Notes under the pieces: generated by a model | The model's input: the letters and a program-made list of their open reading frames with translations, nothing else | Told to the model about the DNA's origin: nothing | Database searches by the model: none | DNA from: Myxococcota bacterium | Lineage (GTDB): Bacteria; Myxococcota; JACRCW01 | NCBI GenBank assembly: GCA_040752415.1 | Contig: JBFMGU010000232.1 | Coordinates: forward strand, 1-16,705 | DNA length: 16,705 bases | Direction: 5' to 3' | Translations under genes and position numbers: made by a program | In this document: positions 164 to 14,828 of the stretch, one piece after another | Layout: every line of letters begins with the position of its first letter | Position numbering within the stretch: position 1 is the first letter of the stretch

Positions 164-530
164 ATGAGAAAGACGAAGCGGGTACCAGACGAGCCAACGC
201 CGAACGAGAAAATTCGAGACAGGTACCAGCGACGCGACTCGCGCTCGCGACGCACCCGTCCGCTCAGCGGCCTCACTGTCACAACCCGGACGTCCACGAA
301 ATGCGAAGCGCGAAGCGGGTCCCGGGCGAGCCGCGCCAACGGATGACAACGAGACGGTGGCCCAGCCGACGCGATTCGCGCTCGCGACGCGCCCGTCCCC
401 TCCGCGGGCTGACTGTGAGAACCCGGATTTCCGCGAGGCGTGAAACGCGAAGCGGGTGCGCGCGCGCCACGTCTCAGCCGGAATCAGACGGTGGTCACAG
501 CGACGCGGTTCCGTCGCGCAACGCGTCGTC
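164..530. repeat. Diverged tandem repeat, 137-bp period, about 2.7 copies
   Basis: CGAAGCGGGT occurs at 174, 311 and 448 (spacing 137, 137). CGACGCG occurs at 230, 367 and 501. Segments 230-300 and 367-437 align without gaps at 59/71 identity. Confidence 0.85.
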
Positions 531-601
531 CTGGCCGTTCCCATGGACTCCCGAATCCCTACCGCTTGTCATCCCGCCGCGGCGGACGGCACAGTGGCGA
601 C

Positions 602-2233
602 ATGGTCGCTTGTCGTGTGTTGACGTTGGGCAGCATGCTCCTGCTCACCGCGTGCCCCTGGCTGGAGGAGAAGGCCTCCCCGCCCATGGACCCCTGTCCG
701 CCTCCCGGCGCCCGCCCCAGCGACGACGGACGCGCGCGCATCTGGCAACGCGGCCCCGGCTGCACCGACCTCTGGCTCGACGAGAAGGTGAGCTACCCGG
801 TGGCGCGTCCGCAGGACCTGCCGCTGGTGTCGTCGGGGGAGGCGGGTTTCGAGGCGTTGGCGCAGGAGGGGGAGCAGCACTGGTACTTCACGGCGCAATT
901 GGAGGGTGAGCCGTTTGGCGTGCCCGCCGAGCTGATGGACGCGTGGATTGGCAACCGTCCCGTCGAGGACGTGGACGCGCTGTTCGAGACGCTGGAGGAC
1001 GTCTGGCACACGGGGCTCGTCCACATCCCGGGCGAGGAGCTCCCGCGGGGGTTGGTGCGCATCAATGAGCCGGAAGCGCTGGCCACGCAGAACTGCAGCG
1101 CGTGTCACAGCGGCGTGGTGAAGGGGAAGCTCTTCGCCGGCGTGGGGAACAAGTGGTACGACCAGAAGCAGCTCATCCGGTTCGCGCGGGCCATGATGGA
1201 GGACGGGCTGCCGGAGCCCGGAGTCGACGACGAGCTGCGCGCCCGGATCGAGCGGCAGATGGCCAAGCTGGACCGCTACGACGCGCTCTACGGCAACGGC
1301 TGCGCGGACCTGGGTCCCGGCATGATCACCGCGGCGCGCATCTGGGAGATCAGCAGCAAGCTCCTCACCGACCCGGCGCAGCTGGCGGACCCGGCACAGG
1401 CCCCGCGCTTCCTGTGCGGCGCCACCAAGCCGCCGCCGCTCAACACCGTGCGCTTCCGCAACCAGCTGTTCTGGGACGGGAGCGTGAGCACGTTGTGGGT
1501 CACCCACTGGCCCATGTTCGACTTCTTCGGTTTCGATGATTACCAGCGCTGGTCCAACAAGGTCGTGACGCGGGAGATCCAGGCCATGGACGCGTTCATC
1601 ATCTTCAAGAGCCCGTCCCCGACGTGGGAGGAGGTGATGGACACCGCGGTGGACGCAACCGCCGCGGCGCGGGGCATGGAGATCTTCCACCGCCAGGACC
1701 TGTGCGCGTCCTGCCACGGCAGCTACGCGGCGGACGGGATGCTCACCTCGTTCTCACCTTCCACCACGCCGCTGGAGCTGATTCGCACCGACGTGGAGCG
1801 CGCCGTGGCCGCCACCGACGAGGTCCTGCAGCAGTTCACGCAGTACCAGTGGGTGCAGGTCCCCCGGCTGGAGCACGCGGAGGGTTTCGCGCCGGGCTAC
1901 GCCGCCATGCCGCTGTGCAGCACGTTCCTGAACTTTCCCTACCTGCACACCGCGGGGGTGGCCAATCTCATGGAGCTGCTCACCGAGGAGACCGCGCGCA
2001 GCCCCTCCTACTGGCAGAGCGACGTCACCGACGACGAGAACGTGGGCTTCTTCACCAGCGTGGACCCGCCGGACACGCGCGGCGTGGCGCCGGAGCCCCG
2101 GGTGGTGCAGCGCACCTTCCGCCCCGAGCTGGTGCACGGCCACTCCGGGGAGCGCTTTGGCACCGGGCTTTCCCTCGAGGAGAAGCGCGACCTGCTGGAG
2201 TACCTGAAGTCGCTGCGCTGCCCGTCGTGGTGA
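602..2233 (+). CDS. Di-heme c-type cytochrome lipoprotein, RoxA-like (CcP/MauG superfamily), 543 aa
   Basis: ATG 602 gives a lipoprotein signal (MVACRVLTLGSMLLLTA-C). Two CxxCH motifs: CSACH (1094-1108) and CASCH (1703-1717). MauG-like motif variant PYLHTAGV (1937-1960). C-terminus GH..FG..LSxEEKxDLLEYLKSL is typical of the family. Strong G/C bias at third codon positions. Confidence 0.8.
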   Translation: MVACRVLTLGSMLLLTACPWLEEKASPPMDPCPPPGARPSDDGRARIWQRGPGCTDLWLDEKVSYPVARPQDLPLVSSGEAGFEALAQEGEQHWYFTAQLEGEPFGVPAELMDAWIGNRPVEDVDALFETLEDVWHTGLVHIPGEELPRGLVRINEPEALATQNCSACHSGVVKGKLFAGVGNKWYDQKQLIRFARAMMEDGLPEPGVDDELRARIERQMAKLDRYDALYGNGCADLGPGMITAARIWEISSKLLTDPAQLADPAQAPRFLCGATKPPPLNTVRFRNQLFWDGSVSTLWVTHWPMFDFFGFDDYQRWSNKVVTREIQAMDAFIIFKSPSPTWEEVMDTAVDATAAARGMEIFHRQDLCASCHGSYAADGMLTSFSPSTTPLELIRTDVERAVAATDEVLQQFTQYQWVQVPRLEHAEGFAPGYAAMPLCSTFLNFPYLHTAGVANLMELLTEETARSPSYWQSDVTDDENVGFFTSVDPPDTRGVAPEPRVVQRTFRPELVHGHSGERFGTGLSLEEKRDLLEYLKSLRCPSW

Positions 2234-2340
2234 CGGGGCGGGGCCGGCTGGCTTCACACTTCCGCAACATCCCGGGCGAGTCGCTCCGGTGGGGCCGGCA
2301 TCCCAGGGCGGTGCAGGATGGTTCCGTGACGGAGGTCCGC

Positions 2341-3456
2341 ATGTCCGAGCTCTTCCCTCTCCAGGCCGCGGCCCCGGCTGTCGCTCCCCCGCGGAGCAGA
2401 CGTGTGCTGCCGCAGCTGGGCGCCCATCCCACCGGGCTGCGGCTGGAGCGCATCCAGTCCTCGCCGCGGTTCATCCAGGGGGTGGCGCAGAATCCCGTCG
2501 CCACGGAGATGCTGCGCGACGTGCGCAAGATGCTGCCGCTGGTGCGCGAGTACTTCCAGGGGCGCCGCGAGCAGGAGCCCAGCGCGCCCTTGCCGGTGGT
2601 GAGGCCGGACCTTTCCCGCGCCACCGCACGCGCGCCCGGTGTGCGGGTGACCTGGCTGGGGCACAGCACCATGCTCGTCAACGTCGACGGCCACCTGGTG
2701 CTCACCGACCCGGTGTTCTCCCGGCGTGCCTCACCCTTCCAGTGGTCCGGCCCCGCGCGCTTCCATCCCACGCCGCTCACCATCGACGAGCTGCCGCCGC
2801 TGGACGCGGTGCTCATCTCCCATGATCACTACGACCACCTCGATCACCTCTCGGTGTTGCAGCTGGCACGACGGGGACATCGCTTCGTGACGGCGTTGGG
2901 GGTGGGCGCGCACCTGGAGGCGTGGGGCGTTCCCGCCGAGCGCATCGTCGAGCTGGACTGGTGGGAATCGGTGGACCTGGGCGGGCTCAACCTGGTGGCG
3001 GCGCCGGCGCGACACTTCAGCGGGCGCACCTCCGCCGGCGGGAACCGCACGCTCTGGGCCTCCTGGGCGTTGGTGGGCGCGCGCCATCGCGTCTGGTTCT
3101 CCGGCGACACCGGCCCCTTCGACGGGGTGCGCGAGATCGGCGCGCGCCTCGGTCCCTTTGACCTGACCATGATCGAGACCGGTGCGCATCATCCCGCGTG
3201 GGGCAACATCCACCTCGGCCCCGACGAGGCGGCGCGCATGCACGGCCTGGTCCGCGGTGGCGCGCTGCTGCCGGTGCACTGGGGCACCTTCAACCTGGCC
3301 CTGCACGCCTGGGATGAACCGATTGTGCGGATGCAGCAGCTGGCCGAGCAGCAGTCCATTCCGCTGTTGGCGCCGGTGGCAGGGGAGACGGTGGACCCGC
3401 GCGCGCCCGCCGTGGCCGCGCCGTGGCGGGAGCGGTTGCGGTTGCGCTCGCGCTGA
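2341..3456 (+). CDS. MBL-fold metallo-hydrolase (RomA/NAPE-PLD-like), 371 aa
   Basis: SD GGAGG at 2331-2335 before ATG 2341. Motifs VTWLGHST, LTDPVFS, SHDHYDHLD (HxHxDH), PARHFSGR, FSGDTG and PVHWGTF. Confidence 0.92.
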   Translation: MSELFPLQAAAPAVAPPRSRRVLPQLGAHPTGLRLERIQSSPRFIQGVAQNPVATEMLRDVRKMLPLVREYFQGRREQEPSAPLPVVRPDLSRATARAPGVRVTWLGHSTMLVNVDGHLVLTDPVFSRRASPFQWSGPARFHPTPLTIDELPPLDAVLISHDHYDHLDHLSVLQLARRGHRFVTALGVGAHLEAWGVPAERIVELDWWESVDLGGLNLVAAPARHFSGRTSAGGNRTLWASWALVGARHRVWFSGDTGPFDGVREIGARLGPFDLTMIETGAHHPAWGNIHLGPDEAARMHGLVRGGALLPVHWGTFNLALHAWDEPIVRMQQLAEQQSIPLLAPVAGETVDPRAPAVAAPWRERLRLRSR

Positions 3457-4143: not shown

Positions 4144-5217
4144 ATGGCCAGGCAAGTGTTCACACCCGGTTGGTCCCTGCCGCTGTCGTCGCTGCCCGTG
4201 GGGTGGCGCTGGGTGATGGCGTTGTTGCCCACCGTGGTGGTGCTGGCCAGCCGCCCGTGGATGCCCGCGGTGCTGAAGCAGACTCCCGCCGTGCTCCACT
4301 ACCCGCCGGTCCTGTTGGCGGCGTGGCTGGGCGGTCTGGGGCCGGGGGTGACCAGCACGCTGGCGTGTACGGTGTACTCCGTGTTGGTCCTGCGTCCGCA
4401 CCTGCTCTCCGCGCCGCTGGACGACGTTCCGGGCCTGCTGCGCACCGGCATGTTCCTGGTGACGTCGGTGGGGTTCAGCGCGCTGGTGGCCGGTCTGCAG
4501 CAGGCGGTGCGTCAGGCCGCGCGGGCGGTGGCCCTGCGTGACGAGTTCATCACCCTGGCCTCCCATGAGCTGCGCACCCCGCTGACCACCATGCGGCTCA
4601 ACCTCTACAACACGCGCCGGCTGCTGGGCATGCCGGTTGACGACGAGGCCATCAAGGCGCGCACCACCAAGCTCGTCGACGGACTGGACCGCCAGCTCAC
4701 CCGCCTGGAGCGCCTCATCCTGGACATGTTCGACGTCTCGATGCTGGAGTCCGGCATGAAGCTGAGCCCCGAGCCGTTGGATCTGGCGGCGCTGGGTGAG
4801 TCGCTGGCACCCAAGGCCGCGGCGGTGGGCTCGGTGCTGAGCGTACGCGTCACGGGGCCGGTGGAGGGGAGCTGGGATCGGCGCTGGGTGCAGCAGCTGG
4901 TGGCCAACCTCCTGGACAACGCCATCAAGTATGGGCAGGGCCGGCCGGTGGACGTGGAGGTGCTGCAGCAGGATGGCCAGGTGCACGTGGTGGTGCAGGA
5001 CCACGGCGTGGGCATTGCTCCCGAGGACCGGCAGCGCATCTTCGAGAAGTTCGCGCGGGTCAGCCCGCCGGGACTGGAGCCCGGGCTGGGCCTGGGTTTG
5101 TACGTGGCGGACCAGACCGCGCGGCTGCACGGGGGCCGGATCGACGTGGAGAGCACGCTGGGCGCGGGCACCCGTTTCACGGTGGTGCTGCCCCGCACGG
5201 TGCCGGTGCCGCGCTGA
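4144..5217 (+). CDS. Membrane sensor histidine kinase (DUF4118-like TM sensor, HisKA, HATPase_c), 357 aa
   Basis: About four hydrophobic N-terminal segments (including PVLLAAWLGGLGPG). H-box ASHELRTPLT, N-box NLLDNAIKY, G1 DHGVGI, F-box IFEKF, G2 GLGLGL. Confidence 0.93.
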   Translation: MARQVFTPGWSLPLSSLPVGWRWVMALLPTVVVLASRPWMPAVLKQTPAVLHYPPVLLAAWLGGLGPGVTSTLACTVYSVLVLRPHLLSAPLDDVPGLLRTGMFLVTSVGFSALVAGLQQAVRQAARAVALRDEFITLASHELRTPLTTMRLNLYNTRRLLGMPVDDEAIKARTTKLVDGLDRQLTRLERLILDMFDVSMLESGMKLSPEPLDLAALGESLAPKAAAVGSVLSVRVTGPVEGSWDRRWVQQLVANLLDNAIKYGQGRPVDVEVLQQDGQVHVVVQDHGVGIAPEDRQRIFEKFARVSPPGLEPGLGLGLYVADQTARLHGGRIDVESTLGAGTRFTVVLPRTVPVPR

Positions 5218-5298: not shown

Positions 5299-7143
5299 CT
5301 ACGGGACGGTCACCGCGCTGGCCGGAAGGATCTGCTTGGACACCCCGGGACCCGCCCAGGACAGCTGCGCCACGGCGTTGAACTCCGCGTCAAAGTAATC
5401 CATCTGCAACACGTGGCCCTCCCCGGCGGTGAGCGGCACGGATGCGCTGGTCTCGGTGGCGGATTGTTCCGCCCAGCGCGTGATGACCTGCTGCCCGTCG
5501 ACGGAGAGGCGCACGCCGTCGTCGGTGTAGGTGAAGAACGTCCAGGTGCCGGAGCTGGGAACCGTCAACGTGGCGGTAAAGCGCGCGCTGAAATGGTCGG
5601 CGGCGAGGGCGGGGTGGGGCTCGTCGCGACCCCAGTTGAAGTTCACCGTCGGCGTCACCTCCGTGATCACCGGCGCGCCAGTCAGGTTCTCGTTGTCGAA
5701 GTACTGCGCGCGGAATCCGTGTTGGGCCCCGTCGTTGGACAGCAGCACGCCCACGGTCTGGGAGGCCGGCGCGGGGTTGTCCTCCTCATCCAGCGCCAGG
5801 AGGGCAAAGTAGTAGACGGAGTCCTGCGGCAGGCTGGAGAGGGAGATGGTCTGCACCGTGCCGGCAGGCTCGGGCGCGTCGGTGGTGAGCGCGGCGGCGA
5901 GGTACCAGTTGGCGCGGGTGATGGGCGCGTTGAAGATGCGCAGGTCGTAGCGGGTGGCGGTGCCCTCGAATCCGTCGTCACCGGGGGCCACGAAGGTCAG
6001 GTCCACCCCGTTGTTGCCCACCCGCTCCAGCGTCAGCGTGTCGACAACGGCGGGCGGCGTGACGTCCTCGGTGTATGGCCCCGCGGAGCTGAGCTGGCTG
6101 GTGGGAATCACCGTGGCCACCGGGTTGCCCACGGTTGCCCAGGCGAGTCTCACGTCCGCCTGCTGGGTGTACTCCACGTACTCCAGGCGGATGCGCACGG
6201 GACGGTCCTCCTGGAAGGCAAACGGGGCCGTCCCGTCGTTGGTCGCATTGTGGGTCCACTGGTTGATGAGCAGCCGCCCGTCCACCCAGAGCCGTGCGCC
6301 GTTGTTGCTCTGCACATTCAGGGAATACACGCCGGTGGTGGGAGCCCACACGTGGCCCATCCAACGCACCGTGAAGTTGTCGGCGGGCACGCCCGTTGCG
6401 GGGACGGAGACGCCCCAGTCAAAATCGACGTCGGGGTCCACCCCCTGCAGCTGCAGTGAATCGAAGGAGGTCCCGGCGTAGTACCAGGCCGCCAGCCCGT
6501 CCCCCACCGGCAACCCCGACGACGAGCTGGACGACGAGCTGGACGACGACGAGCTGGACGACGACGTGCTGGATGACGACGAGCTGGACGATGACGACGC
6601 GCCGGAGGTCGACGAGCTCGAGGAGCTGGAGCCGGTGGACGCGCTGCTGCTGGTAGGAGACGAGCTGACCGCGGCCGAGCTGCTGGTGGTGGTACCGCTG
6701 CTGGTGGCGCTCGCGGAGGATGACGTCGCGGAGGTGCTGGTGCCGCTGGTGATCCCACCGGATGATGACGTGGCGTTGTTGGACGTGGACGAGCTGGTGC
6801 TGGTGGAGCCGACGGTGCTGGCAGCGGAGGAGGAACTGGCGGAGGTGGCGGAGCCGCTGTTTGGGGCGGAAGTGGTGGTGCCCACTCCCGACGAGGAGGA
6901 ATGGCTGGAACCGCCCAGGCTGCTGCTGTGCGCTGCGCCGCTGCTGGTCCCGCCCAGCACCGCCTCGCGACACCGGCCATCCGCACACGTCATGCCGCTG
7001 CCGCAGTCCGCGTCGGCGTTGCACAGGCGCACGCAGCGGTTGCCCTCCTGGACCTCGTTGTCGGCGCATTCCAGGCACGCGGTGGCACCCACCAGGGTCC
7101 ACGCCATCACGGCTGGCAGCGCCACTTTCCGGATCGTGTCCAC
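5299..7143 (-). CDS. Lipoprotein: Cys-rich N-terminus, Ser/Thr-rich linker, PA14, FN3-like domain, PA14 (about 614 aa)
   Basis: GTG 7143 gives signal MDTIRKVALPAVMAWTLVGATA-C. PA14 signatures GLAAWYY..VDFDWG..DNFTVRWMG and GFRAQYF..VNFNWG..DHFSARF..TDDGVRL. FN3-like segment APGDDG..GTATRYDLR..YYFALLALDE. The ORF track starts at 7236, so the start is inferred. Confidence 0.85.
   Translation of the reverse strand: MDTIRKVALPAVMAWTLVGATACLECADNEVQEGNRCVRLCNADADCGSGMTCADGRCREAVLGGTSSGAAHSSSLGGSSHSSSSGVGTTTSAPNSGSATSASSSSAASTVGSTSTSSSTSNNATSSSGGITSGTSTSATSSSASATSSGTTTSSSAAVSSSPTSSSASTGSSSSSSSTSGASSSSSSSSSSTSSSSSSSSSSSSSSSSGLPVGDGLAAWYYAGTSFDSLQLQGVDPDVDFDWGVSVPATGVPADNFTVRWMGHVWAPTTGVYSLNVQSNNGARLWVDGRLLINQWTHNATNDGTAPFAFQEDRPVRIRLEYVEYTQQADVRLAWATVGNPVATVIPTSQLSSAGPYTEDVTPPAVVDTLTLERVGNNGVDLTFVAPGDDGFEGTATRYDLRIFNAPITRANWYLAAALTTDAPEPAGTVQTISLSSLPQDSVYYFALLALDEEDNPAPASQTVGVLLSNDGAQHGFRAQYFDNENLTGAPVITEVTPTVNFNWGRDEPHPALAADHFSARFTATLTVPSSGTWTFFTYTDDGVRLSVDGQQVITRWAEQSATETSASVPLTAGEGHVLQMDYFDAEFNAVAQLSWAGPGVSKQILPASAVTVP
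6518..6955 (-). repeat. Low-complexity poly-Ser/Thr coding tract with short tandem repeats
   Basis: Plus strand (GAC)2-3-GAGCTG units are repeated at about 6518-6600. The tract encodes roughly 140 aa dominated by S/T, including an uninterrupted poly-Ser run. Confidence 0.9.
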
Positions 7144-7149
7144 GTCGAG

Positions 7150-7155
7150 AGCATA
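7150..7155 (-). promoter_or_regulatory. Putative -10 box of a leaderless transcript
   Basis: Minus strand reads TATGCT-ctcgac-GTG: a TANNNT hexamer 6 nt before the inferred start at 7143, with no SD. No convincing -35 box. Confidence 0.4.
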
Positions 7156-7234
7156 GCGCGCGCAGCGAACGGCGTCTCGGAGCAGTGGGAAAACGTCTCC
7201 GGGGGACGCGGCACGGTTCACCCGCCCCCCGGCC

Positions 7235-9100
7235 ATGGCCTACACCTGCCGCGTGGGACGACGTCACGCCTGGGCCACCGCTGCGCTGGCCTTCCTCATC
7301 TACCTCGCCACCCTGCAGCCGTCGGTGGTGGGTGGCGACGCCGGGGAGCTGATGGACGCCGCGCTCACCGGCGGCGTTGCGCATCCTCCCGGCTATCCGC
7401 TCTACACGCTCCTGCTCCGCCTGTTTGCCGCCCTGCCCGGGTTGGACGTGGGCGTGCGGATGAACCTGCTCTCCGCGCTGCTTGGTGCACTCGCCTGCGG
7501 ATTGCTCGCGGAGGCGGTGACCACGGTGTCACGAGCGCCCTGGGCTGGCGTGTTGGCGGGCGGAATGTTCGCATTGAGCCACCGCGTGTGGCCCCATGCG
7601 ACGAGCGCGGAGGTGTTCGCGCTGAACAACATGCTCACGGCGGCGTTGCTTGCCCTTGCGGCGCGCTATGCGGAGCACGCCTCTTTCCGCACGGTGGCGT
7701 TGACGGCGTTCTGCGCGGGACTGGCGCTGGCGAATCATCACACCAGCATCTTTGTCGTCATTCCGGTCCTTGGCTGGATGGGCCGGGCCTTTCCGCGGGC
7801 CCTGCTGCTGCTGCCGTTGGGCCTCATTCCCTACGTGTACCTGCCCCTCGCTGCGCGCAGTGCCGCCGCGGTCACCTGGGGCGATCCGAGCACGCTCACG
7901 GGGCTCGTCGAGCACGTGCTGCGACGGGAATACGGCACCTTCCAGCTCGTCAGTGCGCCGCTCGGTGAGGCCGAGACGCTGCGCGCGTTGGGCTTCTTCC
8001 TCACCGACACGGTGCGCGGTGTTCTCGGGGTGGGCGTGGTGTTCGCGGTGCTCGCCATGCGCCAGCGTCGGACCTGGTGCCGCGTGGTGGCCGGCGCCCT
8101 GCTGATCGACGTGCTGGTGTTCCATTCCCTGGTGAACATGCCGCTGGAACCGGCACTGCTCCGGGGCGTGCAGGCGCGCTTCTACCAGCTTCCGCTGCTG
8201 CTGCTCCTGGCGTTGGCCGGCGTGGGCTTCGCCCGTCTTCGCCGGGGTTCGGCGCCGGTGGCGGTGGCTCTGGTCGTGATCCAGGGGGCGCTCAACCTGG
8301 GCGACGTGTTGCGTCACCGTGGGCGCGTCGTCGAGGAATACGGACGGAGCATCCTGCGTGCCGCGCCGCCCGACGCCATTGTGCTCACGCGTGGAGATCT
8401 CATCACCAACAGCGTTCGCTACCTGCAGGCGGCGGAAGGCCTCCGCGGTGACGTGCGCGTGGTGGACCAGGAGATCCTCAGCCGCACCTGGATGCGCTAC
8501 GCGGCCCAGTTCCCCGACGTCACCTTCCCCGGCACGCATTACCACCCGCGCGAACCGGGTGGGTTCACCATGGCGCAGTTCGTGGCTGCCAACCTGCCGC
8601 GCCATCCCATCGTGGTGTGCGGCGGGTTCAAGGAGGGGGACAGCTCCGTCCCCGGTCTGCTGCAGCAGTGGCCCCTGGGAATCTGCAAACGTCTCCATCC
8701 TCCCGACGTCAGCGTGGACTTCCACGCCTGGCTCGTCGAGAGCGAGCAGGCCCTGCCGCCCGTGCCATCCGGGCCGTTCTCCGACGAGAGCTGGGAGCAG
8801 GTGGTGCTCCAGGACGCGTTGGAGGCGCGTCACGCGCGCGGCTTCCTCGTGCTCACCCACCCGTCGCTGCCCGTCGACACCGCCACGCGCAACACCCTCG
8901 CGGTGCGATTGCTGGAGGAAGCGGCCCAGGATCCGCGCGCCGCCCCGCACGTGCACAAGAACCTTGGGATTGCCCTCAGCCGCCTGGGCACGCCCGAGGC
9001 CCACGAGCGCATGAAGGCGGAATTCCGACGCTACTTGCAGCGCGCGCCCGCCCAGGACCCCGAGATCCCCGCCATCAAACGCGCGATGGGTGACCTCTGA
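7235..9100 (+). CDS. TMEM260/DUF2723-like GT-C glycosyltransferase (putative protein O-mannosyltransferase), 621 aa
   Basis: PSVVGGDAGEL..GVAHPPGYPLY (7319-7405), AEVFALNN, GLALANHHT, PYVYLPL, TWGD, LRREYGTFQL and RGDL..NSVRY. Polytopic N-terminal half, soluble C-terminal half and a TPR-like end (HKNLGIAL..EFRRYLQRAP). Alternative start GTG 7253. Confidence 0.9.
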   Translation: MAYTCRVGRRHAWATAALAFLIYLATLQPSVVGGDAGELMDAALTGGVAHPPGYPLYTLLLRLFAALPGLDVGVRMNLLSALLGALACGLLAEAVTTVSRAPWAGVLAGGMFALSHRVWPHATSAEVFALNNMLTAALLALAARYAEHASFRTVALTAFCAGLALANHHTSIFVVIPVLGWMGRAFPRALLLLPLGLIPYVYLPLAARSAAAVTWGDPSTLTGLVEHVLRREYGTFQLVSAPLGEAETLRALGFFLTDTVRGVLGVGVVFAVLAMRQRRTWCRVVAGALLIDVLVFHSLVNMPLEPALLRGVQARFYQLPLLLLLALAGVGFARLRRGSAPVAVALVVIQGALNLGDVLRHRGRVVEEYGRSILRAAPPDAIVLTRGDLITNSVRYLQAAEGLRGDVRVVDQEILSRTWMRYAAQFPDVTFPGTHYHPREPGGFTMAQFVAANLPRHPIVVCGGFKEGDSSVPGLLQQWPLGICKRLHPPDVSVDFHAWLVESEQALPPVPSGPFSDESWEQVVLQDALEARHARGFLVLTHPSLPVDTATRNTLAVRLLEEAAQDPRAAPHVHKNLGIALSRLGTPEAHERMKAEFRRYLQRAPAQDPEIPAIKRAMGDL

Positions 9101-9123
9101 CACACGCGTTCCGGCCGCGGTGC

Positions 9124-9424
9124 GCTAAGGACGTGGCCAGAAGTTCTTCACACACGGAGGAGTCCCGGTGAGCCCGGACAGCCCGAGCCAAAGCGGTATT
9201 TCAGACCGCACTCCCAAAGGTGCGGGCGCCGCAGGTGCGCTTTCATCAGAGTGCCCGCACCGCGGTTGCTCGTCGGGAAAATCTGCGTGCCGGCTTCTCC
9301 GCCCAATGGGATGGGCGCGGCCGGCACCTTGGGAGCGCGGTCTGGAATACCGCTTTGGAGCGAGCGGGTCGGGCTCAGCCGGAGTCTTCCCAGATGTGAA
9401 GGAACTTCTGGCCAGGTACTTAGC
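9124..9424. mobile_element. 301-bp non-coding element with about 100-bp imperfect terminal inverted repeats (MITE-like or structured RNA)
   Basis: 9124-9146 GCTAAGGACGTGGCCAGAAGTTC matches the reverse complement of 9402-9424 (GCTAAGTACCTGGCCAGAAGTTC) at 21/23. A second block, CCAAAGCGGTATTtCAGACCGCaCTCCCAA (9188-9217), matches the reverse complement of 9329-9358 at 28/30. The inverted repeat is certain; mobility is inferred. Confidence 0.6.
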
Positions 9425-9461
9425 TTAGGGCGGGAGATCCGTGCATTTCCGAGGTGAAGCC

Positions 9462-12400
9462 ATGTTGCGTGGGCTGGGTGTTGTGACGGTGATGGTGGTG
9501 TTGAGCGTGGTGCCGGGCGAGGTGCGCGCGGCGTCGAGTTGCGCGGGTTACTGCGGAGCCAACGCGGGTTCCTGTTGGTGTGACGACGCGTGTTTCAATT
9601 ACAACGACTGCTGCAGCGACGTCCGCACGACCTGCTACGTCCCCGCCATTGGCTCGGTGACTCCCACGCACACCCCGACCCAGGGTGCCCCCATCACCAT
9701 CGCGGGAGTGAAGTTTGGCCCCGGGGGCACGGAGAACTGCCGCTCGCGGGTGGCGTTGTCGACGGCGTCGGCGGACAGCCGCGAGTGCTCCATCACTTCG
9801 TGGACCGAAACGAGCATCCGGTGCACCGTCCCGCCCGGCGTGGGCACGGATTACGCCCTCGTCGTAAGGAATCGCTGGTGCAACGAAGGGACCTCCCCCC
9901 AGCGCTTCTCCTACGACGCGCCGGACATCACCGGCATCGTCCCCAGCACCGTGCCCACCACCGGACAGGTCATCACCATCACGGGCTCCAGTTTTGGCTT
10001 GGACGGCGTCCTGCTCCTGGACGGCGAGAGCGTCCCCGCTGCTTCCTGGACCCACGACCAGCTTCTCGTCGACGTGCCGGAGGGCGTGGGCGCGTATCAC
10101 GAGCTGGAGCTGGAGGTCGGTGGACAGCGCAGCAACGTGGAGACGTTCGCGTATGCGCCGCCGCACATCGACATCGTCAGCCCCACGGATCTCAGCAACC
10201 AGGCCCCCACGGTCATCACCATCCAGGGAACGGACTTTGGCCGCAGCGGTGCCACCGTGACGGTGGGCGGCAGCCCCTGTCTCGTCGAGACGCAGGGCCA
10301 CGAGAGCATCACCTGCACGGCTCCGCCCCAGCCGCCGGGAACCAACGCCGAGGTGCGCGTGACCGCGGGGGAACAGGTCAGCAATGGGGTGGCGGTTGGC
10401 TTTGGGCGTCCGCGGATCACCGCCATCTCTCCGGCGAGCGGCACCACGGCGGGCGGAACCATCATCACGCTCACCGGCAGCGGTTTCACTCCCCAATCCA
10501 CCGTGTCCATCAACGGCACGGACTGCCCGCGCACCGGGACCCCGCCCTCCAACCAGATCCTCTGCATCACGCCCGAGGGAGAAGGCCCCACCGAGGTGCG
10601 CGTGGTCACCAACGGCGTCGTCAGTGATCCCCAGGCGTGGGCGCGCGCCGCTCCGAGTCTGGGTGTCATCACGCCGCAAGGCGGAGCCACCGCCGGCGGA
10701 ACGCCGATCACCATCACCGGAGACAGCTTTGGTGCTTCCCCCACCGCCACCGTCGGCGGCGCGAGCTGCCTCGTGACGCAGGGCGGCCACACGCGAATCA
10801 TCTGCGAGCTGCCCGCGGGGCAGGGGGCCACCGCTGACGTCGTGGTGCGGCGCCAGGATGGGACGGTGAGCCAACCCGCCCTCTACCCATACGCTCCCCC
10901 CAGCATCAGCGACATCACGCCCACGACGGGCGCTGCATCCGGCGGAACGCCGCTGACGCTCACCGGGACCAACTTTGGCGTGAGCCCGGTGGTGATCATG
11001 GGCGGGAGCCTGTGCCCGGTGGTGTCGCGGGATCACACGCGGGTGACGTGCACCACGCCGGGTGGAAGCGGTGATGTCACCGTGCAGCTCCTCGCCGGCG
11101 ACAATCCTCCTGCCACCGCGCAGATCCCGTTCCAGTACGAGGGGCCGGGCATCAGCGGTGTGACTCCGCAGGCAGGTGCCACGGCGGGAGGCATCACCAT
11201 CACCATCGAGGGCACGTCGCTGGGGAACACGGCGCTTGCCAGGGTGGGTGGCTCCACGTGCCCCATCATCGACGTCACGGCCGCGCGCGTGCGCTGCGTG
11301 CTCCCGGCGGGTCAGGGCCTGGATCAGCCCGTGGTCCTGACCGACAGTGGTGGCGAACTGACCGCACCGTTCCCCTATGACTACGCTAAACCCACGGTGA
11401 CCATGGTCGAGCCCGCGACGGGGGGCACCGCGGGCGGGACGGTCCTCACCATCTCCGGCTCCAACTTCGGCACCGCGGGTGGTTCGGTGGAGGTGGGCGG
11501 TCGGGCCTGCATGCTGAGCTCCCAGACTCACGGCGAGATCCGCTGCATGACTCCGCCGGGCGAAGGTGCGGATGTTCCGGTGGTGGTGACCGTTGCGGGT
11601 CAGCAGGCGGCGCCCGAGCGCTTCGACTACCGGCCGCCCGATCTCCAGGTGGTGTCTCCGATGGATGTCATGCGCACCGCGGGTGGCGGCGTGATCACCC
11701 TGTCGGGTAGGGACTTCGGGTTGTCGCCGCAGGTCACGGTGGGCGCGGCGCCCTGTCCCATCACCTCTGCGTCCCACAGCAACATCCTCTGCATCCTTCC
11801 CGCGGGAGAAGGCAGCGTTCCCGCCCGCGTCACGGCGGGAGGACAGCAGAGCAATGAACTGCTCTTCTTCTACGGTCCACCCGTCATCTCCGGGATCACG
11901 CCGACCGCCGGCACCTCCGGCACGCAGCCCATCACCATCATCGGCGACAACTTTGGCCTCGACGCGACGGTCTCCTTTGGCGGTGGGGAATGCGTGGTCA
12001 CCAACCAGACACATACCGAGGTGGAGTGTTATCCGCCCGCGGGAGAGGGAACCGCGCCGGTCAGGGTCATCGCAGGCGGGCTTCCGTCCCTGCCCTTCCA
12101 GGCCAGCTACGCGGCGCCTCTCCTCGACGGGGTGAGCCCCGACCACGGTCCCACCTCCGGCACGGTGATCACGCTCCACGGCTCCAACTTCGGGCTCGCC
12201 CCGTCGGTCACCGTGGGCTCGTCGGAGTGCTCCATCCAGGACCGGACCCATGACACGGTCATCTGCAGCGTGCCCGTTGGCGCGGGAACGGGTCTGCCGG
12301 TGCGCCTCACCGTCGGCGGACAAACCAGCGGGACCGCGCTCTTCGACTACGACCCGCCCGCCATCACGGGTGTGACGCCGGTCAGCGTGCCCACGCGCGG

Positions 12401-14828
12401 CACCACGATCACCATCGTCGGCAGCAGCTTCGGCGCTTCGGCACCGTCGGTGCTCTACGGGGAATCCGCCTGCCCCGTCGTCAGCAGCGATCACAACCGC
12501 ATCCTGTGCAACGCTCCGGAGGGAACGGGAGCTCCCGAGCTCGTCGTCAGGGTAGCGTCGCAATCGACCACCTTCCTCCTGCCCTACACGCCTCCGTACC
12601 TGGAATCGCTGACGCCCACGGAAGTTCCAGCGGGGGGCAACATCCCGCTGACCATCAGCGGCACCAACTTCGGCCGCGGCTCCGCGCAGGTGACGGTGGG
12701 AGGTCAGCCTTGTCCCGTGCTCACCCTCGACCACGAGCGCATCACGTGCACGGTTCCCGCGGGCGCGGGCCCGGCCGGGGTGCAGGTCCGCGTGAGCAAC
12801 CAGGTGAGCAACACGCTGCCGTTGACGTATGACACGCCATACATCGAGGGCATCTCGCCCGCCGTGGTGCCAACGCGCGGCGCGGTGATCACGCTGACCG
12901 GTCGGAACTTCGGTGCTTCTGGATCGGTGACCGTCGACGGGGCCGCGTGCCCGGTGCTCACCTACGCCACCTCCCGCGTCACCTGCACGGCGCCGGAAGG
13001 CGTGGGACGCGACAACTCCGTCCTGCTCATCACCGCAACGCAGACGAGCAACACCGCGCTGCTGCAACGCGCCGCGCCCGTGGCGTTGTCGGTCTCACCG
13101 CAAGCCATCCCCGCCGCCGGCGGAATTCCGATCACGATCATGGGCCAGGACTTTGGCGCCGGCTCCGCCGTCGTCGACGTGAACGGCAGCACCTGCCCGG
13201 TGCAGTCCGTTGATCACGAGGAGATCACGTGCCTTGCGCCGCCACGCCCCGTGGATGCCGCGTTGCTGCGCGTGAGCGTCGCGCAACAGGGCAGCAATGC
13301 GATCAGCGTTCCCTACGCGTTGCCGCTGGTGGCGTCGGTGACGCCGGGGCAATTGAGCGAGCTCGGTGGCGCCATCCTCATCGAGGGCAGCGGTTTCGGT
13401 CCGGGTGTCGTTGTCATGGTGGACGGGGTGGCGTGCCCCATCATCTCCATGCGCGACAACGAGATCCTGTGCCGTGCCCCCGCAGCCAGCGGCGCTTCGG
13501 AGGTGACGGTGGCGCTTGGCGCAACGGTCAGCCCGCCGGTGAACTTGCCGCGCAGCGGCGCGTGTGGCGGGTCCCTGGCCGAAGGCGACCCCTGTGACGA
13601 CGGAAACGTTTGCACCGGCCTCGGCCACTGCGAAAACGGCGTCTGTCGCGGCGCGCCGCCGGAGCGTGAAGGCGAGGCCTGCGACAACGGCAGCTTCTGC
13701 GCCGGAGCCGGCGTGTGCCAGAGCGGCGCGTGTGTGGCTCCCGCCGAGCGCGACACGCTGGCCTGTGACGACGGAAACCGGTGCACGCTGGAAGACGTGT
13801 GCACCGCCGGAGAGTGCGTTGGCTCGTTGTCCGACTCCGTTCCCGGGTGTTGCGGCAGCGACGTCGAATGCGGGGCAGGCAGCCGATGCGAGAACGGTGC
13901 GTGCGTTGCGTTGGACCCGCTCGGCACCGCCTGCGCGGACGGCGCCACCTGCGCCAGCGGCGTCTGTGTCGACGGTGTCTGTTGTGAGTCGGACTGCACC
14001 GGCGTGTGTGAGCAGTGCAATCGTCCGGGGCAGGAAGGGTTCTGTGTGGCCGCGGCTCCTGGAGCGCCGGTGGGAACGCGTCCCTCCTGCCGCGGGAACG
14101 GCGTCTGCGCCGGCACGTGTGACGGGGTGCGGACCGGTTGTGTCTTCCCGGACTCGCAGGTGGTGTGCGCCGCGCCGGAGTGTCTCGGCGAGAGTGTGGT
14201 TGGCGAGGGAACGTGCAATGGCGGAGGAGACTGCGTGACGCCGTCGCCGGCTCCGTGCGCACCCTACGCGTGCGCGGCGGGTGGGACCTGCTTCACCGGC
14301 TGCGTCGACAACGGCCACTGTGCCAGCGGCTTTGTGTGCGTGGGGGGATTCTGCACGCGTCCCGCGGAGGACGCGGGAACGCCTGATGCTGGTGAGGACG
14401 CAGGACCGGCCGACGCGAGCGTGGCGTCCGATGCAGCGACCTCCGATGCCGCTTCCGGCAACGACGCCGGCACCACCAGCGACGACGCCGGCATCACGGA
14501 CGCTGGAGGAGCGGGCGACGCGGCGCCCGACCATGACGCTGCCGCGGAAACCCCCGATGCGGCCGCCGACGACGGCGGTGAGGGACGCGATGGTGCCGTG
14601 AGCCGCGATGCCAGCGTGGATGGCGACGCAGCCCAGCCGCAGCGGGATGCGGGCGCGCGGGATGCCAGCGACGCGCACGACGCCGCCGCCGGCGCTGGCA
14701 ACGACGGTGGTGACGACGACGATTCGGATTCGTCCGTCTGCGCGTGCGCGCGACCGGTGACGGGTGTGCCCTGGTTGGCGCTGACGCTCGTGGCGGCGGG
14801 CGCGCTGGTGAGGCGTCGCCGGCGCTAG
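9462..14828 (+). CDS. Large cell-surface protein: signal peptide, somatomedin-B-like domain, 16 IPT/TIG domains, Cys-rich repeats, DAG-rich linker, MYXO-CTERM-like anchor (1788 aa)
   Basis: SD GAGGTG at 9451-9456 before ATG 9462; signal ends VRA-A. 8-Cys SMB pattern at 9540-9635. Sixteen repeats of about 80 aa, P-x-[IL]-xx-[VI]-[ST]-P..[IL]T[IL]xGxxFG..C..C..P, at 9642-13550. CDDGNxCT-type repeats at 13563-14354. C-terminus VCACARPVTGVPWLALTLVAAGALVRRRRR. Confidence 0.93.
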   Translation: MLRGLGVVTVMVVLSVVPGEVRAASSCAGYCGANAGSCWCDDACFNYNDCCSDVRTTCYVPAIGSVTPTHTPTQGAPITIAGVKFGPGGTENCRSRVALSTASADSRECSITSWTETSIRCTVPPGVGTDYALVVRNRWCNEGTSPQRFSYDAPDITGIVPSTVPTTGQVITITGSSFGLDGVLLLDGESVPAASWTHDQLLVDVPEGVGAYHELELEVGGQRSNVETFAYAPPHIDIVSPTDLSNQAPTVITIQGTDFGRSGATVTVGGSPCLVETQGHESITCTAPPQPPGTNAEVRVTAGEQVSNGVAVGFGRPRITAISPASGTTAGGTIITLTGSGFTPQSTVSINGTDCPRTGTPPSNQILCITPEGEGPTEVRVVTNGVVSDPQAWARAAPSLGVITPQGGATAGGTPITITGDSFGASPTATVGGASCLVTQGGHTRIICELPAGQGATADVVVRRQDGTVSQPALYPYAPPSISDITPTTGAASGGTPLTLTGTNFGVSPVVIMGGSLCPVVSRDHTRVTCTTPGGSGDVTVQLLAGDNPPATAQIPFQYEGPGISGVTPQAGATAGGITITIEGTSLGNTALARVGGSTCPIIDVTAARVRCVLPAGQGLDQPVVLTDSGGELTAPFPYDYAKPTVTMVEPATGGTAGGTVLTISGSNFGTAGGSVEVGGRACMLSSQTHGEIRCMTPPGEGADVPVVVTVAGQQAAPERFDYRPPDLQVVSPMDVMRTAGGGVITLSGRDFGLSPQVTVGAAPCPITSASHSNILCILPAGEGSVPARVTAGGQQSNELLFFYGPPVISGITPTAGTSGTQPITIIGDNFGLDATVSFGGGECVVTNQTHTEVECYPPAGEGTAPVRVIAGGLPSLPFQASYAAPLLDGVSPDHGPTSGTVITLHGSNFGLAPSVTVGSSECSIQDRTHDTVICSVPVGAGTGLPVRLTVGGQTSGTALFDYDPPAITGVTPVSVPTRGTTITIVGSSFGASAPSVLYGESACPVVSSDHNRILCNAPEGTGAPELVVRVASQSTTFLLPYTPPYLESLTPTEVPAGGNIPLTISGTNFGRGSAQVTVGGQPCPVLTLDHERITCTVPAGAGPAGVQVRVSNQVSNTLPLTYDTPYIEGISPAVVPTRGAVITLTGRNFGASGSVTVDGAACPVLTYATSRVTCTAPEGVGRDNSVLLITATQTSNTALLQRAAPVALSVSPQAIPAAGGIPITIMGQDFGAGSAVVDVNGSTCPVQSVDHEEITCLAPPRPVDAALLRVSVAQQGSNAISVPYALPLVASVTPGQLSELGGAILIEGSGFGPGVVVMVDGVACPIISMRDNEILCRAPAASGASEVTVALGATVSPPVNLPRSGACGGSLAEGDPCDDGNVCTGLGHCENGVCRGAPPEREGEACDNGSFCAGAGVCQSGACVAPAERDTLACDDGNRCTLEDVCTAGECVGSLSDSVPGCCGSDVECGAGSRCENGACVALDPLGTACADGATCASGVCVDGVCCESDCTGVCEQCNRPGQEGFCVAAAPGAPVGTRPSCRGNGVCAGTCDGVRTGCVFPDSQVVCAAPECLGESVVGEGTCNGGGDCVTPSPAPCAPYACAAGGTCFTGCVDNGHCASGFVCVGGFCTRPAEDAGTPDAGEDAGPADASVASDAATSDAASGNDAGTTSDDAGITDAGGAGDAAPDHDAAAETPDAAADDGGEGRDGAVSRDASVDGDAAQPQRDAGARDASDAHDAAAGAGNDGGDDDDSDSSVCACARPVTGVPWLALTLVAAGALVRRRRR
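9642..13550 (+). repeat. Sixteen tandem IPT/TIG domain repeats (about 240-250 bp each, diverged at DNA level)
   Basis: Manually delimited at recurring PxI/LxxV/IxP starts and TIxGxxFG cores. Repeat 2 lacks the Cys pair; repeat 1 has four Cys. Confidence 0.88.

Follow-up and report, generated by a model that had tools for sequence, protein, structure and literature searches.

A TMEM260 orthologue encoded beside an IPT/TIG-repeat protein in Myxococcota: a candidate bacterial system for O-mannosylation of IPT domains

In a contig of a Myxococcota bacterium (JBFMGU010000232.1; "the window" hereafter means this whole stretch of 16,705 nucleotides), the gene for a membrane glycosyltransferase, P0001, lies directly upstream of, and on the same strand as, the gene for an exported protein with 16 IPT/TIG repeats, P0002. 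As judged by sequence comparison, P0001 is a full-length orthologue of human TMEM260, more than merely a DUF2723-like protein, and its adjacency to the TIG-repeat gene is conserved in related genomes more than chance would allow. We propose that P0001 is an enzyme and P0002 its dedicated substrate, a mechanism to which, taken as a whole, we assign a probability of about 0.6, and the "animal" type of IPT protein glycosylation probably exists in bacteria too.

TMEM260, whose loss leads to a severe heart and kidney syndrome, was recognized in 2023 as a protein O-mannosyltransferase, the third class of such enzymes in animals. The available text of three reports describes the human protein as an O-mannosyltransferase of the endoplasmic reticulum (ER) that acts on the IPT domains of plexins, cMET, RON and fibrocystins (PMC10214176; 10.64898/2026.03.17.711096; 10.64898/2026.09.21.753134). 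The only paper found that names DUF2723 mentions its bacterial relatives, in the text available, solely as "distant homologs in bacteria" and gives no substrate for them (PMC10214176). Searches of the literature on TMEM260 in connection with bacteria or IPT domains, and on O-mannosylation in Myxococcus, yielded no claim of a bacterial substrate, in agreement with an earlier reading of this sequence (the original prediction) in which no described substrate was known for a bacterial DUF2723 protein. What is new here for an IPT client is that the gene pairing is conserved, that the two genes co-occur and that the acceptor threonine (Thr) is conserved.

A full-length TMEM260 orthologue and its TIG-repeat neighbour

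P0001 matches the Pfam family PF11028 (TMEM260-like) above the gathering score (E 1e-28; 100.8 bits, cut-off 24.2). In a phmmer search of all PDB sequences, its residues 13–610 align in a single stretch with residues 30–683 of human TMEM260 (9RQL/9RQM/9RQN, chain 9rql_A; E 3.4e-80, 273 bits), and this alignment covers the membrane GT-C core as well as both luminal-type domains, the Rossmann-like and the TPR domain. A paralogue in the same genome (L035) reaches 83 bits against the human protein, in an alignment that ends at human residue 485. P0002 matches PF01833 (TIG) in 16 stretches (E 2.2e-189), so that the gene order recognized in the original prediction, a TMEM260-type gene directly upstream of an exported 16-IPT protein, is borne out by both family assignments. 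Bit scores against human TMEM260 are 273 for the window enzyme, followed by 245, 202 and 242, and 324 for a metagenome orthologue without a TIG neighbour; the idea that the TIG-linked clade is the nearest to the human enzyme was rejected, because the latter score is the higher one.

The AlphaFold2 model of P0001 (pLDDT 94.4, pTM 0.93) comprises transmembrane helices, a five-stranded alpha/beta domain (strands at residues 382–488) and five C-terminal helices (520–620), a layout that agrees with the GT-C core, five-stranded alpha/beta domain and five-helix TPR described for the human structure in the available text of the 2026 cryo-EM preprint 10.64898/2026.03.17.711096. A Foldseek search with this model against a PDB library without TMEM260 entries returned the GT-C enzymes ArnT, ALG12, OST/PglB, AftB, Pmt4, Pmt1-Pmt2 and DPY19 (E down to 7e-6). 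No NCBIfam model names P0001, and Pfam adds a weak PMT_2 match under the cut-off (E 0.0068). The bacterial family is large, with at least 412 proteins at E ≤1e-20 among 8000 candidates scored, the best of which is 46% identical to P0001, and with 980 cluster representatives of the bacterial DUF2723 family at E ≤1e-30. The named homologues returned were all proteins from metagenome-assembled genomes (Archangium sp., a Myxococcaceae bacterium, Longimicrobiales, Gemmatimonadaceae, Limnocylindrales and Acidobacteria), and a search of genome contigs with the single P0001 sequence found only three distant gammaproteobacterial paralogues.

Orthologues were surveyed by searching P0001 against 400 other genomes drawn from the phylum (E ≤1e-50), and their flanks, up to 9 kb on each side, were scanned in six frames with a hidden Markov model (HMM) built from the 16 repeats of the window. 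The orthologue occurs in 27 of these genomes at 28 places, 23 of them in family f11. At 10 of the 28 places the immediate neighbour is a multi-TIG gene, located 0–130 nt away or overlapping as stop-to-stop frames, and Pfam finds 5–10 TIG stretches in each of these neighbours (L010, L012, L017 and L020 in genus g115; L018 in g109; L024 and L034 in g108; L031 and L032 in g142; L028 in g118). The count is 9 of 20 for places where the match is full-length and both flanks reach 1.5 kb or more, and 9 of 27 when L034 is left out, which derives from an unpublished genome (G195). By our own arithmetic, the chance of a TIG neighbour for a given gene is about 0.3%, since the 11-Mb window genome has TIG matches in only 12 open frames on 10 contigs. 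An 11th case is provided by G286 (g135), whose enzyme gene is broken up between two contigs, with a 9-repeat TIG gene divergent to the N-terminal portion. In G212 (g114) one contig begins with the enzyme and a second contig begins with an 8-repeat partner, which would be compatible with a divergent pair.

Together with the window (genus g1), the paired cases span seven genera (g108, g109, g115, g118, g135 and g142 being the others) and three arrangements, namely divergent (g108, g109, g115, g135), TIG gene followed by enzyme gene on one strand (g142, G320) and enzyme gene followed by TIG gene (the window), and the paired enzymes are only 34–46% identical to P0001. No other gene family is common to three or more of the 12 paired loci, so the pair has been retained while its surroundings changed. 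TIG open reading frames (ORFs) were found beside none of the distant DUF2723 paralogues in 61 loci (584,705 bases), beside neither of the other two PF11028 genes of the window genome (L035, L036), and not beside L037, the nearest paralogue in the sole other sampled genome of the window's family. The adjacency of P0001 and P0002 is thus conserved beyond chance, and the coincidence that the original prediction had still allowed for did not hold up, as the pair recurs in related genomes.

In a maximum-likelihood tree of 53 enzymes (LG+G4), all TIG-linked enzymes fall within one 26-row clade, with a support of 92 in the Shimodaira–Hasegawa-like approximate likelihood-ratio test (SH-aLRT). The TIG-linkage label requires 3–5 changes on this tree, and as few were obtained in none of 500 label shuffles. 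The window enzyme is nested in the f11 radiation (SH-aLRT 96) while the window genome belongs to another class, which suggests that the gene, perhaps the whole pair, may have moved laterally; the orthologue is absent from the sole other sampled genome of the window's own family.

Repeat subfamily, acceptor threonine and active-site residues

The repeats encoded next to the orthologues differ from other TIG domains. Linked repeats score medians of 49–85 bits per protein against the window HMM, compared with 14–40 bits for the other TIG proteins of the same genome and a median of 31 in genomes without the orthologue. Individual residues separate the two groups in the same way (G27 in 90% of linked versus 6% of other repeats, C39 in 89% versus 12%, C51 in 88% versus 19%), and a cysteine (Cys) pair and a G-x-x-F-G turn are common to the linked repeats and mostly missing from the others. 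On these features of sequence, the linked TIG repeats are a distinct subfamily.

This subfamily co-occurs with the enzyme. When the 16-repeat profile was searched against 401 genomes, with 13 candidates scored per genome, the best match reached E ≤1e-19 in 17 genomes, 16 of which hold the orthologue; the subfamily is therefore present in 16 of the 29 orthologue genomes versus 1 of the 372 others. Fifteen of the 17 have the orthologue in the E ≤1e-50 survey, and the 16th is G286 with its split gene. The sole exception, G061 (C397, L151), encodes subfamily-type repeats (best E 2.5e-21) and has only a 29-bit paralogue of the enzyme in a genome that is 94% complete in 610 contigs. As G228, G307 and G343 carry the subfamily gene and the enzyme gene on different contigs, the co-occurrence holds without adjacency.

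According to the available text of the TMEM260 reports, the human sequon, located on the A and B strands, is P-x6-P-x3-P-x2-G-G-x3-T (as written in 10.64898/2026.09.21.753134), the enzyme tolerates variation in it including loss of the middle proline (10.64898/2026.09.21.753134), T822 of plexin-B2 is glycosylated on an extended peptide (10.64898/2026.03.17.711096; 10.64898/2026.09.21.753134), and the mannosylated sites of cMET are Thr582, Thr676 and Thr761, all on B strands (PMC10214176). In the profile of the window repeats, the Thr of column 20, as counted from the alignment, lines up with these three cMET sites and with the B-strand Thr of plexin-A1. Fifteen of the 16 window repeats have Thr at column 20, as do 71 of the 78 repeats from 11 other adjacent partners (66 of 72 without G195). 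The corresponding figures are 28 of 59 for repeats in nine non-adjacent TIG open frames of the window genome and 40 of 68 for those in 22 open frames from 12 genomes without the orthologue. Pooled, Thr is found in 86 of 94 linked repeats (91%) versus 68 of 127 other TIG repeats (54%; Fisher p 4e-10, kinship ignored).

In repeats that average 37% identity, the acceptor column is the fifth best conserved, and the outward-facing column 22 close to it varies freely. Subfamily proteins that are not adjacent to the enzyme gene have the Thr in 14/14, 8/8, 7/8 and 6/7 of their repeats. More of the sequon is present as well: P1, P8, G16 and T20 occur together in 12 of the 16 window repeats, and in six of the 16 with the middle proline too. 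With Thr or Ser accepted at column 20, the combination is found in 12/16 window repeats and 51/78 partner repeats, compared with 12/59 control repeats from the same genome and 21/68 from genomes without the orthologue. The final repeat of the partners is without the acceptor Thr and looks like a conserved exception; P0002 has Leu at this place, and six partner proteins have Trp (L010, L012, L017, L020, L146 and L149, from g115, g118 and g135).

The available text of 10.64898/2026.03.17.711096 lists D52, H67, R264, Y267, R355 and D441 as needed for the activity of human TMEM260. D52 and H67 form the sugar-recognition motif, R264 and Y267 belong to the donor-loading loop, R355 to transmembrane helix 10 (TMH10), and D441 of the Rossmann-like domain is the proposed catalytic base beside the acceptor Thr; D52 positions the donor (D52A is inactive), and D52, H67, Y267 and R355 contact the mannose (10.64898/2026.03.17.711096). 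In the alignment, read by eye, the counterparts of these six residues in P0001 are D35, H50, R230, Y233, R315 and D388, and all six are identical. D35, H50, R230 and R315 are invariant in 52 bacterial orthologues, and Y233, G387 and D388 are each shared by 90% or more of them. The motif HPPGYP starts at residue 50 and GGDAGEL at residue 33, from which the codon of Asp35 follows (Table 1). The original prediction had pointed to the conserved Asp of this GGDSGEL-type loop at 7337-7339, positions that proved correct, and the residue indeed aligns with human D52, and the aligned catalytic-base Asp388 extends the correspondence beyond that claim. Further human residues retained in P0001 are R439, G440, E466, C522, K641 and N642.

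Proposed mechanism and competing explanations

For the transfer and when it takes place, for the sugar and its lipid carrier, and for the surface location of the product, we infer the following. P0001 would be an inner-membrane protein whose Rossmann-like/TPR lobe, as the homologue of the ER-luminal lobe of the human enzyme, faces the periplasm, and P0002 would exit the Sec channel unfolded. The lobe would then bind the extended A–B segment of each repeat, with the sequon P-x6-P-x3-(P)-x2-G-G-x3-T, so that Asp388 could deprotonate the Thr on the B strand. Asp35, His50, Arg230, Tyr233 and Arg315 would hold a polyprenyl-phosphate-sugar, from which a single hexose, probably mannose, would pass to this Thr with inversion. 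With one O-linked sugar on each repeat that has the Thr, P0002 would carry at most 15 of them; its repeats would fold afterwards, and the protein would be displayed on the cell surface via its C-terminal anchor-like tail. Mannose is a first guess because the four mannose-contacting residues of the human enzyme are conserved. A polyprenyl-phosphate-sugar donor is plausible from the genes present: small GT2 genes resembling polyprenyl-phosphate-sugar synthases, all under equivalog cut-offs, lie beside the orthologue in L040 and L042, and of the seven homologues of these genes in the window genome the best (44% identical, C508:2187-2888) is a candidate donor synthase. The term "fold-specific" used for such glycosylation in the original prediction should read sequon- or domain-specific, as the human enzyme recognizes an extended sequon and not a folded domain, according to the available text of 10.64898/2026.03.17.711096.

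A number of points weigh against reading the two genes as enzyme and substrate. In genus g118, 12 of 13 orthologue places are without a TIG neighbour (three contigs are too short to tell). Metagenome contigs scanned with the 52-sequence alignment gave 78 loci, 20 of them with a full-length orthologue; a TIG neighbour was found at one of these 20 (L051, at a distance of 26 nt and truncated where the contig ends) and at none of the 13 whose flanks each extend 1.5 kb or more, and Pfam scans of 112 neighbouring ORFs from loci without a TIG match detected no TIG domain. Because these orthologue loci mostly lack a TIG neighbour, the TIG link is a feature mainly of one Myxococcota clade and not of all bacterial orthologues. 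The enrichment of IPT/TIG genes near relatives of the enzyme, which the original prediction had named as a check, accordingly stands within the phylum and by comparison with the distant paralogues, and fails at the well-flanked metagenome orthologues. The co-occurrence figures depend on a threshold (E ≤1e-19) that was picked after the bimodal scores had been seen and on an HMM derived from the window's own repeats; 13 of the 29 orthologue genomes are without a strong subfamily match, although they are weak negatives because repeat genes assemble badly. The genomes are related and hence not independent, so the Fisher p value of 4e-10 overstates the case. Thr is common (54%) at the acceptor column of unrelated TIG domains, and shared descent adds to the 91% in the linked repeats, since the partner proteins are homologous. 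The enzyme tree, moreover, is a quick one.

The likeness of the repeats and of the acceptor-binding surface to the human system is also incomplete. Plexin-A1 is the top PDB match both for the linked-repeat profile (2.7e-29) and for a control profile (3.6e-19) from a non-adjacent TIG protein of the same genome, and the suggestion that the repeats are specifically plexin/MET-like was rejected on this ground; as the control profile ranks plexin-A1 and MET first too, the PDB match was used for residue alignment only. In the human enzyme, a TPR "asparagine ladder" (N602/N638/N642/N680) recruits the acceptor, and conservation falls towards the TPR fingers, as stated in the available text of 10.64898/2026.03.17.711096. 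Of this ladder, P0001 keeps one of the four asparagines (N642; N602 is changed to T, N638 to H and N680 to A), and the human peptide contacts Q591, R652, P443 and I523 are not retained in the alignment read by eye, so the grip on the acceptor may differ from that of the human enzyme. A complex prediction from the enzyme alignment and the first 32 residues of one repeat scored 0.01 and was counted neither for nor against binding.

These changed contacts lend some weight to an explanation that we consider unlikely, in which the two genes are functionally linked and the sugar goes to an acceptor other than the TIG protein. The enzyme would then modify another protein, a lipid or a polysaccharide, and its TIG neighbour would serve as a co-regulated component of the surface, as a scaffold or as a binder of the product. 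Adjacency and co-occurrence reveal linkage and not the direction of action, and the top structural matches of P0001 are GT-C relatives such as ArnT and arabinosyltransferases that act on lipids or glycans, but this ranking is uninformative, since TMEM260 structures are outside the library searched. The equivalent of the Thr-activating D441 is kept with its RGD context in at least 90% of the orthologues, and the partner repeats retain the exact acceptor Thr together with much of the sequon, both of which speak against this explanation. P0001 might instead be a protein O-glycosyltransferase of broad specificity that serves a range of exported proteins or every TIG domain of the cell, with its neighbour as one client among many. 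The orthologues without TIG neighbours in g118 and in other phyla would fit such an enzyme, as would the Thr at column 20 in about half of the other TIG domains of the window genome and the tolerance of human TMEM260 for sequon variation (10.64898/2026.09.21.753134, in the text available). Nevertheless, linkage and co-occurrence concern one TIG subfamily and not TIG domains in general, and the Thr is far better retained in this subfamily, which makes a broad specificity rather improbable.

That the adjacency reflects chance or inherited synteny without functional meaning is very improbable. All cases do fall in one clade of 26 rows, from which a single ancestral juxtaposition could have been inherited, but the pair persists at 34–46% enzyme identity in three arrangements with no other flanking gene in common, the paralogue loci have no TIG gene at all (0/61), the non-adjacent copies still co-occur, and the label shuffles never gave as few changes (0/500). 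Least probable of all is a catalytically dead P0001 kept for a different function, such as that of a chaperone of the repeats or a receptor for them, given that all six residues needed for human activity are retained. We thus favour P0001 as the enzyme and P0002 as its client, which the orthology, the TIG enrichment and the near-invariant Thr in repeats with much of the human-type sequon support in line with the original prediction.

Where the TIG link is missing, the orthologue has other neighbours. A SIR2-family gene is the usual conserved one in g118 (L007, L013, L014, L015, L016), genes for a PlsY-type glycerol-3-phosphate acyltransferase and an Omp85-family protein flank the orthologue of a metagenome clade in six loci (L049, L050, L055, L056, L062, L068), and in four loci (L038, L040, L041, L042) of a clade with about 53% GC it is found in clusters with GT1, GT2, PMT_2 and NTP_transf_5 genes. 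The last clade is the one that scores highest against human TMEM260 (324 bits), and in L040 the orthologue is tandemly duplicated.

The partner protein, its surroundings and related systems

From its N-terminus, P0002 consists of a probable signal peptide, a Cys-rich module, the 16 TIG repeats, a Cys-rich region, an acidic low-complexity stretch and a C-terminal anchor-like tail (Table 1). The same Cys-rich module precedes the first TIG repeat in the partners of L028, L031, L032, L010, L012 and L020, and in L031 and L032 it matches Pfam Somatomedin_B (E 5.5e-6 and 8.4e-7). The tail of P0002 resembles the myxosortase-dependent and MYXO-CTERM tails of NCBIfam, with E values of 5e-4 to 0.12 that are all sub-threshold, and a comparable tail is present in 7 of 10 partner proteins printed. 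The common build of the partner proteins comprises a signal peptide, the Cys-rich module, TIG repeats, a Gly/Ala-rich stretch and a Cys/hydrophobic/Arg tail, to which some add Big_9 or cadherin-like domains.

Table 1. Positions of the two genes and their features in the window
Feature	Position	Strand	Remarks
TMEM260 orthologue gene P0001	7235..9100	+	ATG start, 621 aa; GT-C membrane core, Rossmann-like domain and C-terminal TPR helices
Asp35 codon (human D52)	7337..7339	+	GGDAGEL loop; invariant in 52 orthologues
Asp388 codon in "RGD" motif (human D441)	8396..8398	+	G387 and D388 kept in at least 90% of 52 orthologues
Palindromic repeat copy, ~300 nt, like a miniature inverted-repeat transposable element (MITE)	9115..9433		arms 9115-9146/9402-9433 (32 nt) and 9156-9229/9317-9390 (74 nt)
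Gene P0002 for the IPT/TIG-repeat protein (predicted surface protein)	9441..14828	+	GTG start, 1795 aa; likelier start is ATG at 9462
Probable signal peptide, from Met8	9462..9530	+	hydrophobic stretch ending "VRA"; judged by eye
Cys-rich module, ~35 residues, somatomedin B-like, ahead of first repeat	9531..9641	+	comparison by eye; no Pfam match in window copy
16 IPT/TIG repeats, ~80 residues each	9642..13556	+	Pfam and repeat HMM
Candidate acceptor Thr codons (start)	9696, 9975, 10218, 10467, 10710, 10956, 11202, 11448, 11697, 11934, 12171, 12411, 12651, 12891, 13134	+	repeats 1-15
Repeat 16, Leu at acceptor column	13377-13379	+	no Thr
Cys-rich region behind repeats	13557..14360	+	no family match (Pfam, NCBIfam)
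C-terminal tail: Cys-x-Cys, hydrophobic helix, five-Arg run; MYXO-CTERM-like	14724..14825	+	by eye and weak NCBIfam match

The 341 nt between the two genes are largely filled by a copy of a palindromic repeat with at least 88 matches in its own genome (69–92% identity, both strands counted), corresponding to about 40 distinct places (40 of 130 candidates scored). The two genes would accordingly have been a few tens of nt apart before the insertion, probably close enough for one operon. The element has no match in Rfam, and no promoter-like sites were found between positions 6900 and 9600. Many of its copies sit at contig ends.

The window is contig C149 of an 11.0-Mb genome in 520 contigs with three PF11028 places; an origin from Myxococcota fits both the nearest named proteins, going by their names, and the C-terminal tail of P0002. 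Divergent from the enzyme gene, positions 5299-7236 (-) encode a protein of 645 aa in which two PA14 domains are accompanied by a low-complexity stretch rich in Ser/Thr (about 150 residues) and, by eye, a lipoprotein-like signal; the true start of its gene is probably further in, because the ORF starts as printed overlap by 2 nt with the enzyme gene. A homologue of this PA14 protein is not found beside three or more of the 12 paired loci. Further upstream are a gene for a DUF4118 histidine kinase (4144-5217) and two ORFs, 440-2233 (+) and 1624-3456 (+), one with cytochrome c motifs and the other with a C-terminal metallo-beta-lactamase-fold domain, and at least one start of these two must be wrong as they overlap by about 600 nt.

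If P0001 and P0002 are a true enzyme–client pair, P0002 would be the first candidate substrate for the large bacterial DUF2723 family, and sequon-directed glycosylation of one repeat type would occur in Gram-negative bacteria. The pair would also offer a simple two-gene system in which to study recognition by TMEM260 and what O-mannose does to the folding of IPT domains, and it would raise the question of where the animal pathway originated. A more far-reaching view is that animals did not invent the domain-specific O-mannosylation of IPT repeats of the plexin/MET type. In this view, enzyme, sequon and acceptor Thr would already cooperate in Myxococcota as a dedicated two-gene module, and this module would share its origin with the animal pathway, enzyme and client domain having been inherited or transferred as a functional pair. 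We regard such a shared origin as doubtful; were it true, the module would be a tractable bacterial model of a human disease enzyme.

Among known systems, the protein O-mannosyltransferases of the PMT/POMT type (PF02366/PF13231), including the actinobacterial ones, are of the GT-C class and modify proteins in the course of Sec export or afterwards, with mannose supplied by a polyprenyl-phosphate; PMTs contain MIR domains, and their targets are Ser/Thr-rich unstructured regions and not a domain sequon. P0001 shares the GT-C architecture and belongs to a different family, with its PMT_2 match under the cut-off and with Pmt4 and Pmt1-Pmt2 among its Foldseek matches. The PglL/PilO-type O-oligosaccharyltransferases and the general O-glycosylation systems of Bacteroidota also modify exported proteins in the periplasm from lipid-linked donors, and they use preassembled glycans and different or loose acceptor motifs; these enzymes and P0001 come from unrelated families and share the theme of periplasmic O-glycosylation. 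TMTC1-4, which O-mannosylate the B and G strands of cadherin EC domains (PMC10214176, in the text available), resemble P0001 in combining GT-C and TPR parts and in a domain-selective O-mannosylation of beta-sandwich repeats, and differ from it in that there is no significant sequence match.

The closest parallel is human TMEM260 itself, with which P0001 is collinear over 600 residues in the same order of GT-C core, Rossmann-like domain and TPR, and with identical residues at the six donor and catalytic positions. The partner repeats resemble the human clients in that many of them carry much of P-x6-P...G-G-x3-T, with a Thr that aligns with the mapped cMET sites. Unlike the human enzyme, P0001 is bacterial, would presumably act at the inner membrane and in the periplasm with a polyprenyl-phosphate rather than a dolichyl-phosphate donor, and has three of the four TPR ladder asparagines changed. 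The genes for enzyme and client are physically linked, in contrast to the human system, and P0002, unlike the human clients, presents 16 repeats with a C-terminal anchor-like tail that resembles the myxobacterial type.

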